The notes below the pieces were generated by a model. That model saw only the letters and a program-made list of their open reading frames with translations, was not told the origin of the DNA and ran no database searches. A program made the translations under genes and the position numbers. A DNA stretch of 64,000 nt from a virus. Each line of letters starts with the position of its first letter. Within the stretch, counting starts at the first letter, position 1. The DNA is taken from positions 1-64,000 of IMG/VR virus record IMGVR_UViG_3300021364_000008, one strand, 5' to 3'. Below, one piece after another: positions 4,269 through 10,561 of this stretch.

Positions 4269-5367
4269 TTATTCAAAAATTTCTACAGATGAGTTGAAAA
4301 AGCAACGTCAAAATTGTATTAAAAGTATTTCGAAATATACAAATAATCAAATGGCAAGAAAAATACAACTTAATAGTTTGTATGGGGCAATAGGAAACGC
4401 ATACTTCAGGTATTACAAACTAGCAAACGCAGAAGCAATTACTCTTTCTGGTCAACTCTCAATTCGTTGGATTGAAAATAGAATGAATCAGTTTCTAAAT
4501 AAGATTTTAAAAACTAAGGATGTAGATTATGTCATCGCATCTGACACAGATTCAATTTATCTTAATCTTGGACCTATTGTTAATAAATTTTTTAATAATA
4601 AAGTTGGGAACAAGAACAAGATTGTGGAACTCTTGGATAAGATATGTCAAGAGCAGTTTGAACCGTTCATCGAATCCAGTTATAAAGAACTTGCGTCATA
4701 TGTCAATGCATATGAGCAAAAAATGCAAATGAAGAGAGAAAATATTGCCGATCGTGGAATATGGACTGCTAAAAAAAGATATATCTTGAATGTCTGGGAT
4801 AGTGAAGGTGTTCGATATGAAGAACCTAAACTTAAGATGATGGGAATTGAAGCAGTCAAATCTTCTACTCCAGCACCTTGTCGTAAGATGATTAAAAATG
4901 CTCTTAAGTTGATGATGAGTGGTACTGAGGATGATGTAATTGATTTTATTGAGAAATGTCGCTCTCAATTTAATAAATTTTCGCCAGAAGAAATAGCATT
5001 TCCTAGAACTGTAACTGATGTGGAAAAATGGAAATCATCATCTGGAATCTATAGTAAGGGAACACCCATTCACGTTCGTGGAGCACTTCTTTTCAATCAT
5101 TATATTAAAGAGAAAAAATTAACTAACAAATACTCTTTGATTCAAAATGGCGAAAAGATTAAATTTTGCTACTTAAAAAAACCAAACATTATTCATGAGA
5201 ATGTGATATCTTTTATATCAGATTTTCCGAAGGAATTTGGTATTGACAAGTATATTGATTATGAACTACAATTTGAAAAAGCATTCTTAGAACCACTTAA
5301 ATCAATTCTTGATGCTATTGGATGGAAAACAGAAAAAACAACTAGTCTGGAGGACTTTTTTTCATAA
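4258..5367 (+). CDS. 43: DNA polymerase B (gp43), C-terminal part
   Basis: Motif B KIQLNSLYG, motif C DTDS, KKRY, C-terminal clamp-binding SLEDFF. Confidence 0.93.
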   Translation: MGLDYSKISTDELKKQRQNCIKSISKYTNNQMARKIQLNSLYGAIGNAYFRYYKLANAEAITLSGQLSIRWIENRMNQFLNKILKTKDVDYVIASDTDSIYLNLGPIVNKFFNNKVGNKNKIVELLDKICQEQFEPFIESSYKELASYVNAYEQKMQMKRENIADRGIWTAKKRYILNVWDSEGVRYEEPKLKMMGIEAVKSSTPAPCRKMIKNALKLMMSGTEDDVIDFIEKCRSQFNKFSPEEIAFPRTVTDVEKWKSSSGIYSKGTPIHVRGALLFNHYIKEKKLTNKYSLIQNGEKIKFCYLKKPNIIHENVISFISDFPKEFGIDKYIDYELQFEKAFLEPLKSILDAIGWKTEKTTSLEDFFS

Positions 5368-6284
5368 TGGATTTTTTAAAGGACATTGTAAAGGAAATTG
5401 GTGACGATTACACACAACTTGCATCTGAAATTGATGAAACTGAAACTTATGTAGACACAGGTTCATATATTTTTAACGCATTAGTTTCTGGTAGTGTATT
5501 TGGTGGTGTATCTGGAAATAAAATTACTGCCATTGCTGGTGAGTCTTCTACTGGCAAAACTTTCTTTTCTCTTGCTGTTGTTAAAAATTTTCTTGATAGT
5601 AACCCAGATGGTTACTGCCTGTATTTTGATACTGAAGCAGCGATCACTAAATCTCTTTTGGAGAGTCGTGGAGTTGATACAACCAGAACTGTTGTTGTCA
5701 ATGTCGTAACAATTGAAGACTTTCGTACCAAAGCATTGAAAGCTGTAGATATCTACTTAAAGAAACCTGTAGAAGAACGCAAACCTTGTATGTTTGTGCT
5801 AGACTCTTTGGGTATGCTCTCAACTGAGAAAGAAATCAAAGATGCTCTAGATGATAAGCAAGTTCGTGATATGACCAAATCACAACTTGTAAAGGGTGCA
5901 TTCCGAATGCTAACTCTCAAGTTGGGTCAAGCAAAAATTCCAATGATTGTGACTAATCACGTATATTCCGTAATTGGACAATATGTTCCTATGCAGGAAA
6001 TGGGTGGGGGTTGTTTAGTTGCGGGAACTAAGATACAAACAGAAAATGGTTCTATTCCTATTGAATCTATTCAAGTTGGTGACAAAGTGAGAACTATGTT
6101 TGGTTATTCATCAGTTACTCACACTTTCCATTTCACCGACAAAGATGTTTATGAATTGGAATTGGAGGATGGAGAAACTATTAGATGTTCTGGTGAACAT
6201 AAATTTTTAGTAGATACTGGAGATGGTTATGAATGGAAATCTGTTACTGAGTTATTACCTTCAGATACTATCAAATCTATGTGA
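5367..6284 (+). CDS. uvsX: UvsX recombinase N-extein fused to 90-aa N-intein (6012-6281)
   Basis: Walker A GESSTGKT, VLDSLG; after EMGGG comes CLVAGTKI (block A) and IRCSGEHKF (block B). Confidence 0.92.
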   Translation: MDFLKDIVKEIGDDYTQLASEIDETETYVDTGSYIFNALVSGSVFGGVSGNKITAIAGESSTGKTFFSLAVVKNFLDSNPDGYCLYFDTEAAITKSLLESRGVDTTRTVVVNVVTIEDFRTKALKAVDIYLKKPVEERKPCMFVLDSLGMLSTEKEIKDALDDKQVRDMTKSQLVKGAFRMLTLKLGQAKIPMIVTNHVYSVIGQYVPMQEMGGGCLVAGTKIQTENGSIPIESIQVGDKVRTMFGYSSVTHTFHFTDKDVYELELEDGETIRCSGEHKFLVDTGDGYEWKSVTELLPSDTIKSM

Positions 6285-6289
6285 AAGTT

Positions 6290-6326
6290 GGTTCTGGACT
6301 AAATAATAATAGTTTAGTCCAGAACC
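6290..6326 (+). promoter_or_regulatory. Perfect 14-bp hairpin with late promoter (CTAAATA) abutting HEG start
   Basis: GGTTCTGGACTAAA / TTTAGTCCAGAACC; TTG start at 6327. Confidence 0.75.
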
Positions 6327-7001
6327 TTGTTTTTATCAAATAAGTATACTGATTGTTATTTCCGTATTATTAATAAGGCAAATCTTAGGAAACTTCCTCA
6401 AATTACTGAATGTCATCATATTATACCTAAATCATTAGGTGGAGGGGAAGAAGCAGAAAACAAAGTATATTTAACACCAAGAGAACATTTTGTCTGTCAC
6501 CATCTTCTTCTGAAAATGTTGGAGGGAAAATTAAAGCAGAAAATGTGTTATGCCTTTTATAATATGAAACGTAGTAATGGTAATGGTGTTAGATGTAAAA
6601 ATGTCAATTCTTATGATAGAATAAGATCACACTACTCACATCTTACTTCGGGTGAAAACAATCCATTTTATGGTAAGGGACATTATGGATTTTCTAACCC
6701 GATGTCAAACCCTGAAGTTCGGGAGAAACATAAACAAATCGTTTCTTCACCTGAACATAGAAAGAAGATGAGTGATAAAATGTCTGGTGAAAATAATCCA
6801 TTTTACGGAAGAACTCATTCAGATGAAACCAAGAAACATCTTTCTGAGTTGGCGTCTCAGAGAATAGGTAAAAACTCTCCCCGTTATGGGAAGAAACACA
6901 AACAAGTTGTTTGTGAACACTGCCAAAAACAAATCACTTACCCAATGTATAAGAGGTGGCATGGAACGAACTGTAAAATCTATAAAGAAAATAAAAACTG
7001 A
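6327..7001 (+). mobile_element. HNH homing endonuclease with NUMOD3-like repeats between the uvsX intein halves
   Basis: ECHHIIPKSLGG...LTPREHFVCHHLL; GENNPFYG x2, HSDETKK; CxxC tail. Confidence 0.88.
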
Positions 7002-7431
7002 AGATGTTTATGACATCACTGTTGAGGGAGAACATCATTATATTCTTGATAATGGTGTTGTGTCTCATAACTCTGGTCTTAAATATGCTGCTTCTACAAT
7101 CATTTATCTTTCTAAAAAGAAGGAGAAAGATGGAACAGAAGTCATTGGAAATATTATTAAAGCAAAGACTGCAAAATCACGCTTGAGTAAAGAAAATAAG
7201 GAAGTAGAGATTCGCTTGTATTATGATGAGAGGGGGCTAGACCGATACTATGGTCTCTTGGAGCTTGGAGAAATCGGTGGACTTTGGAAAAATGTAGCAG
7301 GACGCTATGAAATTGATGGTAAGAAAATTTATGGGAAACAAATTCTTGCAGAACCTGAAAAATATTTTACGCCCGAATTAATGGAGAAACTTGATGAAAT
7401 TGCGAGACACGAATTTAGTTACGGTAAGTAA
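6961..7431 (+). CDS. uvsX: 37-aa C-intein (6961-7071) fused to UvsX C-extein
   Basis: [33 protein letters not shown]|SGLKYAAS; GAGGTG upstream of ATG 6961. Confidence 0.92.
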
Positions 7432-8080
7432 AACACCATTATCACTATTTCCAATACCTGTTGAAATCTTTAATTTTAATAATCATTATCACGATTTAAA
7501 TGTATCTTTAATTGAAGATATAATTAAAGAAAAGAATAATGATCCTTCTGGTGCTAATCACAGCAATATGTGGGGGTGGCACAGTAAAACAAATTTGGAA
7601 AGAGTTTATGAGAGTTTTACTAGACTCAAAGATATAATTGAATCATGTGGAAATGAGTATTGTAAACAGTATGGATATAAAGATGGTTTAGTATGCTCAG
7701 ATCTTTGGGCAAATGTGAATGGTCCTAATGATTTAAATTTTAATCATCACCACGGAACTTCTGCTCTTGCTGGTGTTTATTATCCAGTCGAATCAATACT
7801 TGACTGTGGTTGTATTTTCAACTACACTAATAATAACCCATTAAAAGGTGGCACTTGGAATAATGTTGATGGGGGATCTCTTGTTTTTCAAGATCCTTCC
7901 TACGGAAAGAAAATCCATCTCATAAAGGATAAAGATTCTCCGTATAATGTAGATTTTTATCATTTATATCCAACTTCTGGAGTTTTGGTTTTATTTCCAA
8001 CCTACTTATTGCATAGTGTACTTCCATTCAGAGATGATAAAACTAGGGTAAGTATATCTTTTGCATTTATCTATGGATAA
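7391..8080 (+). CDS. Putative 2OG-Fe(II) oxygenase (TIGR02466-like)
   Basis: [28 protein letters not shown]; start uncertain. Confidence 0.8.
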
Positions 8081-8702
8081 AATTGAATTTTTAATATTGA
8101 AGTGTCTTATTAACAATGAAGAATATGCTAGAAAAGTTTTACCCTTTATTAAGGAAGAATATTTTGAAGAATTTGAGCAAAAGGTAGTATTTCAAGAAAT
8201 TTCTAAGTTTATTCTTGAGTATAATAAAATTCCCACAAAGCAAATTCTTGATATTGAAGTTGAAAAACGTAATGATATCAATGGAGATCAATATAAATCC
8301 ATAAGCCAACTAGTTGATAATCTTGATGAAATTGCTGTTGAATATAAATGGTTGATTGATTGTACAGAAAAATGGTGTAGAGATCGTGCAATTTATCTTG
8401 CCCTGATTGAATCTATTCAACTGGTAGATGATAAGGGTGATAAAAATAGAGATGCAATTCCATCAATATTGCAAGATGCTCTTTCAGTTTCATTTGACAA
8501 TCACGTAGGCCATGATTATCTTCAGGACTACAAAGGAAGATTTGAATTTTATAATAAAAAGGAGGAACGAGTTGAATTTGATTTGGAATATTTTAACAAA
8601 ATTACCAAAGGTGGTCTCCCTAATAAAACTCTCAATATCGCACTTGCTGGTTGTGTTCACCCAGAAACCAAAGTTAAGATTAGATTTAGGAAGATTTCTT
8701 GA
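8073..8702 (+). CDS. 41: Replicative helicase gp41 N-extein fused to 16-aa N-intein (8652-8699)
   Basis: TEKWCRDRAIY, VGHDY, KGGLPNKTLNIALAG then CVHPETKVKIRFRKIS-stop inside Walker A. Confidence 0.92.
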   Translation: MDKIEFLILKCLINNEEYARKVLPFIKEEYFEEFEQKVVFQEISKFILEYNKIPTKQILDIEVEKRNDINGDQYKSISQLVDNLDEIAVEYKWLIDCTEKWCRDRAIYLALIESIQLVDDKGDKNRDAIPSILQDALSVSFDNHVGHDYLQDYKGRFEFYNKKEERVEFDLEYFNKITKGGLPNKTLNIALAGCVHPETKVKIRFRKIS

Positions 8703-9354
8703 TTTTGGAGTTTGGTGCTGGTTCTCCTGTTCCAAATTTCCAACCTTCGTTTAATTTAGTATCAACATCTTCTGGAAGTATTCTTTTCCATCCTTTTGTT
8801 CCTGGTAAGTGCATTACCTTTTTGCCTTTGTGTGCCTTTCCTCCAAGAGATGCTCTTTCCCTTCTTCCTTGATTTGATGCCCAGTAATTAAATTCTTTTG
8901 ATGCTCTCTTTTTTCCTCCAAGAGATGCTCTTTCTTTTCTGCCTTCTTCTGTGCTCCAATAATAAAAATTTTTAACTTTATTGTTTAGATATTCTTGTTT
9001 TTGAGTTTCTATTCCTTTAATCATCCATTCTTTTCTTTCTTCTACTGGTGTTGAAAAGAAACCAAGTTGATTATCTCTACAAAACTCTCCAATTATTTTT
9101 CTATGTTGTGGTGATAAATTAGCACCTAACATTTTCATAGATCTTAAATCATTTGGATTTTTGTAAATCTTCCAAAGTAAATAGTGTGCTATGATGTGTT
9201 CTCTAACATTCAAGTATGTGAGGTTGCAATCATCATCTGTTCCTCCCATATGTTTAGGAACAATATGATGCTCGTGTAGTCCTGAATATTTCTTATAGTT
9301 TTCTCTTCTTAACTTATTGCCTTCGCATAAGTTAGAATAGATACGATCAAACAT
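8686..9354 (-). mobile_element. HNH homing endonuclease, antisense, between the gp41 intein halves
   Basis: HEHHIVPKHMGG...NLTYLNVREHIIAHYLL; repeated ERASLGGK; TATAAATA on minus strand at 9377-9384. Confidence 0.88.
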
Positions 9355-9388
9355 TCCCTGTCCCTGCTACTGTTATTATTTATATAAA

Positions 9389-10561
9389 ATGTGGATTGAA
9401 AAAGAAACATCAATTGCTGAAATCAAAACATTACTTGATAATGGATATGAGGTAGAAGTTGATTCGCCTGATGGATATGTTCCAGTCAATTTCTTTATTA
9501 ACAAAGGAATGTATGATGAATATGTTTTAAAGGTTGATGGTGAAGAACCAATTAGGTGTAATGCCGATCATTTATTTGAAACATCTTTTGGGTGGATGAA
9601 AGCATCGCATCTTTTTGAAAAATATAAGACAAATCATTTTTTAACTAAAAATGATTATAAACTTGGTAGTGTCTTTAAAACAGGAAATCAAATACCTATT
9701 GTTGATATTAATGTAAATCACCCAAATCATAGGTATTATACTAATGGTGTTTCTTCTCATAATACTGGTGTGGGTAAATCTCTATTCATGTGCCATGTGG
9801 CTAGCTCCGTCTTGCTCCAAGGGAGGAATGTACTCTACATTACAATGGAAATGGCAGAGGAGAAAATTGCTGAGCGAATTGATGCAAACCTTTTAAATAT
9901 CCCAATTCAGCAATTGACAGATCTTCCAAAGTCAATGTTTGAAACCAAAGTTACAAACATTTCTAAAAAAACTCAGGGAACTTTTATAATTAAAGAGTAT
10001 CCAACTGCTTCTGCACATGCTGGACACTTTAAATCACTTCTTAATGAACTTGCACTTAAGAAATCATTTAGACCTGATATTATTTTCATTGATTACCTTA
10101 ATATTTGTGCTTCCTCTAGATATAGGGGAAACCTTTCTGTCAATTCTTATTCGTATATTAAGGCAATTGCTGAAGAACTTCGAGGATTGGCGGTGGAATT
10201 CAATGTCCCCATCGTTTCTGCTACTCAAACCACTCGCAGTGGTTATGGTAGTTCTGATGTTGAACTTACTGATACTTCTGAATCCTTTGGTCTCCCTGCT
10301 ACTGCTGATCTTATGTTTGCCCTTATTAGCACTGAAGAGTTGGAGGAGTTGGGGCAGATTATGGTAAAGCAACTGAAGAATCGTTATGCTTCAACTGATA
10401 AATATAGAAGGTTCGTCTTAGGAATTGATAGGTCAAAAATGAGATTATATGACTGCGAGCAATCAGCTCAAGAAGATATTCTTGACAACAGCAAAGAAGA
10501 CGAGTATGATTTCCATGAGGAAAACAAACCCAAGAAAACATTTGAAGGATTTAAATTCTAA
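9389..10561 (+). CDS. 41: 125-aa C-intein (9389-9763) fused to gp41 helicase C-extein
   Basis: IRCNADHLF (block B), HPNHRYYTNGVSSHN|TGVGKS; FIDYL, SATQTTR, SESFGLPATAD. Confidence 0.93.
   Translation: MWIEKETSIAEIKTLLDNGYEVEVDSPDGYVPVNFFINKGMYDEYVLKVDGEEPIRCNADHLFETSFGWMKASHLFEKYKTNHFLTKNDYKLGSVFKTGNQIPIVDINVNHPNHRYYTNGVSSHNTGVGKSLFMCHVASSVLLQGRNVLYITMEMAEEKIAERIDANLLNIPIQQLTDLPKSMFETKVTNISKKTQGTFIIKEYPTASAHAGHFKSLLNELALKKSFRPDIIFIDYLNICASSRYRGNLSVNSYSYIKAIAEELRGLAVEFNVPIVSATQTTRSGYGSSDVELTDTSESFGLPATADLMFALISTEELEELGQIMVKQLKNRYASTDKYRRFVLGIDRSKMRLYDCEQSAQEDILDNSKEDEYDFHEENKPKKTFEGFKF

Follow-up and report, generated by a model that had tools for sequence, protein, structure and literature searches.

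A VidaL-family intein cut in two by an antisense endonuclease cassette probably rebuilds the gp41 helicase of an uncultured cyanophage

How can a phage make its replicative helicase if the gene is parted within the Walker A motif? This question is raised by gp41, the DnaB-like replicative helicase of an uncultured T4-like cyanophage represented by IMG/VR record IMGVR_UViG_3300021364_000008, of whose 99 kb we analyzed positions 1-64,000 (hereafter the window). The helicase is encoded here as two genes, gp41-N at 8073-8702 (stop included) and gp41-C at 9389-10561, and its Walker A motif is broken as AG|TGVGKS. Very probably, the interruption is a class-1 mini-intein of the VidaL family that has been halved by an antisense HNH cassette and whose two halves trans-splice to give an intact helicase.

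Joining the two exteins restores NIALAGTGVGKSLFM across Walker A, letter for letter the sequence of the unbroken gp41 of Synechococcus phage S-SCSM1; over a longer stretch the joined exteins read NKTLNIALAGTGVGKSLFMC, and the intein-less S-SCSM1 protein reads KTLNIALAGTGVGKSLFMCH at the same place. By blastn, the gp41 region resembles that of T4-like cyanomyoviruses, for example S-SCSM1 and Prochlorococcus phage P-TIM68; the matches to phages of this type fall into two pieces with about 1.1 kb of the query skipped, gp41 being uninterrupted there. The N-extein (8073..8651, plus strand, 193 aa) ends ...NKTLNIALAG, with the first two residues of Walker A, and the C-extein (9764..10561, plus strand, 265 aa and stop) opens with a threonine (9764-9766) that begins TGVGKS (9764-9781), so that the interruption ALAG|TGVGKS reported in a first-pass annotation of the window, made from the sequence alone, is confirmed base for base. 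The C-extein matches DnaB_C (PF03796, E 2.4e-16) and is the only part of the 99-kb record to do so. The gp41-N open reading frame (ORF) is listed from a TTG at 8061, the ATG at 8073 (MDKIEF...) agreeing with the start of homologues, and its product gives a weak match to the DnaB N-terminal domain. Alignment maps the insertion between Gly198 and residue 199 of T4 gp41 (8dtp), in its Walker A AGVNVGKS; two gp41 relatives that carry the same intein in contiguous form, P0072 and P0103, align to residues 4-198 of that structure.

The N-terminal intein fragment (IntN; 8652..8699, plus strand, 16 aa, CVHPETKVKIRFRKIS) starts in frame with gp41-N at Cys1 (TGT, 8652-8654) and runs to a TGA stop at 8700-8702, with five K/R against one E (net +4). 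The C-terminal fragment (IntC; 9389..9763, plus strand, 125 aa from the ATG at 9389) carries CNADH at residues 57-61 and an NHRYY...SSHN end, finishing VSSHN at residue 125; SSHN|T occupies 9752-9766 and is followed by GVGKS. Its residues 1-30 hold eight D/E against two K/R (net -6). The anatomy proposed earlier, with a basic 16-residue fragment closing the upstream frame and an acidic-headed 125-residue fragment with CNADH and SHN|T opening the downstream one, therefore stands in all its numbers.

A phmmer search of IntC against all PDB chains places VidaL (6vgv/6vgw) first at E 1.5e-9, with the Spl DnaX and gp41-1 inteins behind it, and since VidaL tops the search at this E-value the intein identity is not a matter of chance. 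VidaL is also the top PDB match of the contiguous allele P0103, and there the alignment spans the entire intein with its IntN (E 7.8e-13). By way of P0103 the window IntN aligns to VidaL residues 4-19: VidaL ...G-(C1A)LPKEAVVQIRLTKKG-MIEEKK... stands against ...G-CVHPETKVKIRFRKIS-W-WIEKE..., and the VidaL boundary ...TKKG|MIEEKK falls opposite ...RKIS|(M)WIEKE. VidaL and P0103 also end alike, in HPNHRYY..G..SH(N).

The fold was modelled with AlphaFold2 on a natural contiguous allele, L038:2935-3402, using a family alignment of 59 rows; L038 belongs to the 80 related IMG/VR loci kept of 122 confirmed, and compared with the window its IntN is identical and its IntC 86-87% identical (tblastn). 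The model, with a predicted local distance difference test (pLDDT) score of 93.2 and a predicted template modelling (pTM) score of 0.86, assigns this allele a horseshoe Hint fold. Foldseek against the PDB again ranks VidaL first (E 1.6e-12, TM-scores 0.84/0.90, root-mean-square deviation (rmsd) 1.5 Å, 30% identity), and the remaining top-50 matches are exclusively inteins or bacterial intein-like (BIL) Hint domains, with the PolB16 OarG intein a distant structural match at rank 42. In the model the natural break falls directly after the second strand, in a loop (residues 19-23) that connects the strands at 12-18 and 24-29; this is the position called S1 that is stated for VidaL and PolB16 (PMC13014065). 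Sequence, predicted fold and break position thus agree with what the first-pass annotation had proposed as probable, namely a new member of the VidaL group and not a new class.

VidaL itself, according to PMC13014065 (which cites Neugebauer 2017 and Burton 2020), is naturally split at S1, has a 16-aa IntN and is Cys-dependent; its splicing half-time at 37 °C is about 1 min, and no other fast short-IntN intein has been characterised (PMC13014065). Besides the homologous sequence (about 30% identity), predicted fold and break after the second strand, the two inteins share a basic 16-residue IntN beginning with Cys, a block B without Thr, the common end described above and an insertion point after Gly and before the [ST]G of a P-loop. 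They differ in the +1 residue, which is Ser in the VidaL chain and Thr in the window, and in their surroundings: the nearest relatives of VidaL in the set compared here are UvsX/RecA-like (HN|SGKS), whereas the window intein sits in gp41 (HN|TGVGKS), the host gene of VidaL being judged here from relatives only. Neugebauer and colleagues are said to have named in 2017 an intein 'VidaL T4Lh-1' in a T4-like helicase; this carries no weight in the present reading.

Are the residues needed for splicing kept? Counting at each position those rows of the family alignment that have a residue there, position 1 is Cys in 32/34, the block B His (IntC residue 61 in the window) is present in 58/59, and the terminal His-Asn in 58/58. 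The +1 residue is Thr in 48/57, Ser in 6/57 and Cys in 3/57. The Thr+1 singled out in the first-pass annotation is accordingly present, but it is the usual residue of the family, since these helicases natively have Thr at that point of Walker A. The ratio of nonsynonymous to synonymous substitution rates (dN/dS) of IntC has a median of 0.19 over 78 comparisons with related loci, which indicates purifying selection, and the first 14 IntN codons show dN ~0 at dS 0.3-2.4 against relatives.

This conservation bears on the idea that the intein pieces pair and merely hold the helicase halves together as a non-covalent module. IntN (+4) and the head of IntC (-6) are oppositely charged, which would favour tight association with or without chemistry, but association alone needs neither Cys1, nor the block B His, the His-Asn pair or the +1 nucleophile, all of which are conserved family-wide. 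A 141-residue domain left between residues 2 and 3 of Walker A would, moreover, probably block ATP binding, and the homologue VidaL splices at the rate given above (PMC13014065). We consider such a purely structural role very unlikely.

Conservation argues equally against a pseudogene, in which an endonuclease insertion would have broken the helicase gene of a phage that is defective or uses another helicase. The record, about 47% complete, has room for another helicase, and several other genes in the window, uvsX among them, are fractured by homing endonuclease genes (HEGs). Here, however, both frames are open, and their stop and start coincide precisely with the ends of the cassette. No catalytic residue is lost, IntC dN/dS is ~0.19 and IntN dN is ~0. 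The same split architecture recurs in hundreds of distinct metagenome sequences, and alleles without a HEG stay split, with stop and start overlapping (TAATG in L065) or adjacent (TGAttATG in L028). Together these observations make a dead gene highly improbable.

What then cut the intein in two? The gap between the gp41 halves is filled by a 222-aa minus-strand HNH ORF that the first-pass annotation does not mention, a free-standing homing endonuclease gene at 8686..9354. Its product matches the homing endonuclease family phrog_655 (E 1.4e-15), the match to Pfam HNH being weak and below the cut-off (E 0.005), and copies 80-98% identical lie at the same position and in the same orientation in most related loci. 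DNA comparison with contiguous alleles (L038, L042, L044-L047), which read TCT TGG TGG, delimits an inserted cassette of 689 nt at 8702..9390, placed from sequence between TCTTG and GTGG. The IntN frame acquires its TGA stop with the first base of the insert and the IntC frame its ATG with the last two; the HEG passes the edge of the insert, its last five codons and stop lying antisense within the IntN codons.

Since excising 8702-9390 recreates the contiguous TCT TGG TGG exactly, the insert could be taken for an intron with an antisense HEG, removed at the RNA level to leave the intein contiguous in the mRNA. No Rfam family, group I and group II introns included, matches within 8500-9600 on either strand at E <= 1. 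Group I introns are expected to be bounded by U and a terminal G, whereas here the 5' exon ends in G and the insert in T. The cassette also brings an in-frame stop and an ATG, and the HEG-less alleles are split at the protein level. The intron reading was rejected on the missing Rfam match and the boundary bases, and we give it next to no credence.

Upstream of the HEG lies TATAAATA, the consensus of T4-type late promoters (9377..9384, on the minus strand like the HEG and 22 nt upstream of its ATG), which in 63/80 related loci lies no more than 60 nt upstream of the IntC start. Across the whole window the element shows no significant excess (13 occurrences, 8 expected), so its function is argued by conserved position only. 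Dassa et al. describe the same element upstream of fracturing HEGs (PMC2677866). Between the gp41 halves there is no terminator-like site. Sigma-70-like promoter matches show no excess (7 against 9.2 in shuffles), and the HEG start is not hidden in a hairpin, its fold scoring no better than shuffles (z 0.99). The position of TATAAATA and the missing terminator would fit co-transcription of both gp41 halves antisense to the HEG, which may itself be expressed late from its own element.

The preferred reading, a split intein that still works, can be laid out as follows. An antisense HNH cassette would have entered the loop that follows the second beta-strand (S1), cutting the intein into two genes. 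Two polypeptides would be made, the N-extein with the basic 16-residue IntN and the acidic-headed 125-residue IntC with the C-extein; the pieces would associate, IntN contributing strands one and two of the Hint fold. Cys1 would then form a thioester, which Thr+1 would attack to yield a branched oxyester; cyclisation of the terminal Asn and an O-to-N shift would leave a peptide bond, the product being an intact helicase of 458 aa with its native P-loop. Association, splicing chemistry and rate are inferred, the chemistry from the family, and a working split intein is favoured because the catalytic residues are kept, dN/dS is low, gp41-C is the sole DnaB_C match in the record and no intron matches.

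Several points weigh on the other side. A second helicase gene is possible because the record is only about 47% complete, and for the window sequence itself splicing is something we infer. Block B reads NADH instead of TxxH, with Asn at the Thr position (N, S or A across the family); most inteins have Thr there, and VidaL too is without it. Neither Pfam nor PHROGs gives a match to the intein, split or contiguous, and there is no Shine-Dalgarno sequence ahead of the IntC ATG. The predicted Hint fold is that of the natural contiguous allele L038, which stands in for the complex of the window's own two pieces.

If a HEG split this intein, related phages might show other stages of the same process. 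Allele counts are approximate and refer to the ~68 of the 80 related loci that show both halves. The window-type layout, with an IntN ending ...RFRKIS, the 222-aa minus-strand HNH ORF and a gap of ~688 nt, occurs in ~27 loci. In another ~19 loci the HEG is accompanied by an additional plus-strand ORF of 106-278 aa, without a Pfam family match, and IntN tails read ...RFRKLK[ITSL], with an IntN of just 14 aa in L006 and L043; examples lying between IntN and the antisense HEG are L001:1867-2241, L003:438-1004, L010:1457-2230, L011:1984-2820 and L008:1590-2225, and in L011 and L037 the HEG has shrunk to a remnant. A different HNH protein (35% identical) with an I-TevI-like DNA-binding tail accompanies an 18-aa IntN ...RKRSAI in 5-6 loci, and L067 has a plus-strand ORF in place of the HEG. 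Four loci are split without a HEG, namely L028/L029 (TGAttATG), L065 (TAATG overlap) and L075 (overlapping frames). The junctions lie at L028:1421-1500, where IntC begins MEFIEKE, at L065:2951-3010 and at L075:100-150. Since stop and start are 2 nt apart, overlap or lie in overlapping frames, these junctions suggest translational coupling after loss of the HEG. Contiguous mini-inteins are found in seven loci: L038, L042, L044-L047 (...KIS-W-WIEKE...) and L072.

This series of alleles matches the gene-breaking model of Dassa et al. (PMC2677866), in which a free-standing HEG invades an intein and may later be lost while the split is retained. We lean, with less assurance than for the split intein itself, towards the view that the population keeps every fracture stage of one intein lineage: contiguous, split at S1 by three or more distinct endonuclease cassettes, and HEG-less with scar-like stop/start junctions, the states being interspersed in gp41 and UvsX clades. 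S1 would then be a recurrent point of HEG invasion.

The lengths of IntN vary as well. Tails beyond residue 14 differ freely (KIS, KLKI, KRSAI and others), and at L006:1853-1894 and L043:1853-1894 the natural IntN has just 14 residues, CVHPETKVKIRF[RK]K, fewer than the 15 of PolB16, which has been called the shortest characterised (PMC10189870).

The intein travels together with its endonuclease. In pairwise DNA alignments with the window, identity is 89-97% over IntN, HEG, spacer and IntC in loci where it is 64-81% over the gp41 exteins and 52-76% over neighbouring genes, and IntC dS in the closest loci (0.15-0.35) is far below that of the exteins (0.7-2.4). From both comparisons it follows that the intein-HEG island is mobile and, as judged by these identities, has spread recently between diverged phages.

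The element is common in nature. At E <= 1e-3, IntC has matches in about 970 metagenome proteins, the best 120 being 81-99% identical; most of the matching proteins are 374-406 aa long, as expected for the split form, and a few of 594-600 aa are contiguous. Among representatives at 50% identity, 243 clusters match. The rarity ascribed earlier to inteins with short N-fragments thus holds for characterised examples and not for nature, given these ~970 proteins and the 122 IMG/VR stretches. No deposited phage genome carries the window intein, the best matches there being 34% identical. These family members lie in the UvsX-like recombinase gene of Pseudomonas jumbo phage PA5oct and relatives (H21-H31, for example NC_071039.1 136463-136840), where the genes are annotated merely as recombinase, hypothetical or structural protein.

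Where does the window intein stand within the family? Among the listed representatives, and by a rough classification, contiguous forms and forms with an N-terminal IntC both occur in gp41-like (HN|T[GN]xGK[ST]) as well as UvsX/RecA-like (HN|[ST]GK[ST]) exteins. A quick tree built on 118 columns, weakly resolved and with most forks unresolved, sets a gp41 clade that includes the window apart from a clade of UvsX and other sequences (SH-like approximate likelihood ratio test (SH-aLRT) support 95). Both clades mix split with contiguous rows, and the nearest representative of the window, P0121, is contiguous; the 20 changes between the two states on the tree are an upper-end figure, the starred branches forcing only ~3. 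A 72-aa VidaL fragment is most similar to UvsX-type members (P0225 54%, P0208 48%, P0219 47%, P0192 43%). Because the nearest relatives of VidaL sit in UvsX-like P-loops, the window intein is placed by these comparisons as a gp41 lineage sister to that of VidaL, to which it is ~30% identical. The protein P0137 (605 aa) has an IntC-like start, later a second, contiguous intein copy (CVIKGTKVKIRYRGIT...) and then TRRYKN without a P-loop, and may represent a different host gene or a rearrangement.

The closest precedents for the locus are the fractured genes reported in 2009 by Dassa et al., gp41-1 among them. That study (PMC2677866) describes features that recur here: a cyanophage-like gp41 with uvsX and a 2-oxoglutarate (2OG) oxygenase gene upstream, adjacent gene halves that each carry part of an intein and flank a free-standing endonuclease gene, TATAAATA upstream of the HEG, and HEG-less split alleles such as gp41-7. 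The window differs in the insertion site, which for gp41-1 is position 356 of P-SSM2 gp41 and here is Walker A, and in the break, which is canonical there and at S1 here, with an IntN of 16 aa against a canonical ~100-130 aa (PMC13014065). Its HEG, an HNH gene on the opposite strand, is also unlike the HEG families named in the available text of PMC2677866. The gp41-1 intein is missing from the window, whose sequence ...TTRSGYGSSDVEL... is uninterrupted at that site. A number of relatives, P0003, P0074 and P0097 among them, have a gp41 fractured twice, with both inteins in one gene, at Walker A and with a gp41-1 IntN; P0003 and P0074 end ...TTRSGY|CLDLKTQVQT... at the gp41-1 site.

Natural atypically split inteins characterised so far are AceL-TerL and GOS-TerL, split at S2, and VidaL and PolB16 OarG, split at S1 (PMC13014065, PMC10189870), and natural atypical IntN fragments are given as 15-37 aa long (PMC13014065). 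PolB16 OarG shares with the window intein the natural S1 split and a very short IntN (15 aa), and differs in its Ser1/Ser+1, cysteine-independent chemistry, its PolB host and its 168-aa IntC (PMC10189870). AceL-TerL and GOS-TerL are likewise naturally atypically split, have a short IntN and come from phage-like metagenomic loci; their split is at S2, after the first helix, their host is the terminase large subunit, and the AceL-TerL IntN has 25 aa.

An intein of the VidaL kind was already known, and our understanding of its mechanism stays as it was; the window intein stands apart from VidaL by its sister clade in gp41, probably a different host gene, and by Thr+1. For phage biology, an essential replication enzyme would depend on protein trans-splicing, and an intein-endonuclease island moves between diverged cyanophages. 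Protein chemistry wants short-IntN inteins because a 16-mer is accessible by peptide synthesis, and the lineage adds a Cys1/Thr+1 relative ~30% identical to VidaL, with natural IntN variants down to 14 residues. Comparison of matched contiguous and split alleles could reveal the changes that fit an intein for the split state. Should the fracture series be as we read it, the VidaL family would be a natural system in which S1, and not the canonical endonuclease-domain site, is recurrently invaded by HEGs, and would offer a ready panel of natural IntN lengths (14-21 aa) with a Cys1/Thr+1 pairing for semisynthesis tools.

Two further observations concern the intein and its neighbourhood. IntC residues 9-43 (window 9413-9520), a helix-hairpin segment IAEIKTLLDNGYEVEVDSPDGYVPV, match designed ankyrin repeats weakly (E 2.6e-4) and give multi-stretch matches in proteins of 1,000-3,600 aa, which probably reflects local resemblance and no domain homology. 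The window also holds a second intein, conventionally split, in uvsX at 5367-7431: UvsX-N (5367-6284) closes with ...EMGGG|CLVAGTKIQ..., its IntN being ~90 aa long, next on the plus strand, at 6327-7001, comes an HNH/NUMOD3 endonuclease gene, its ORF end overlapping the start of the UvsX-C ORF, and UvsX-C (6886-7431) carries ...VVSHN|SGLKY and matches Pfam Intein_splicing at E 1.2e-6.

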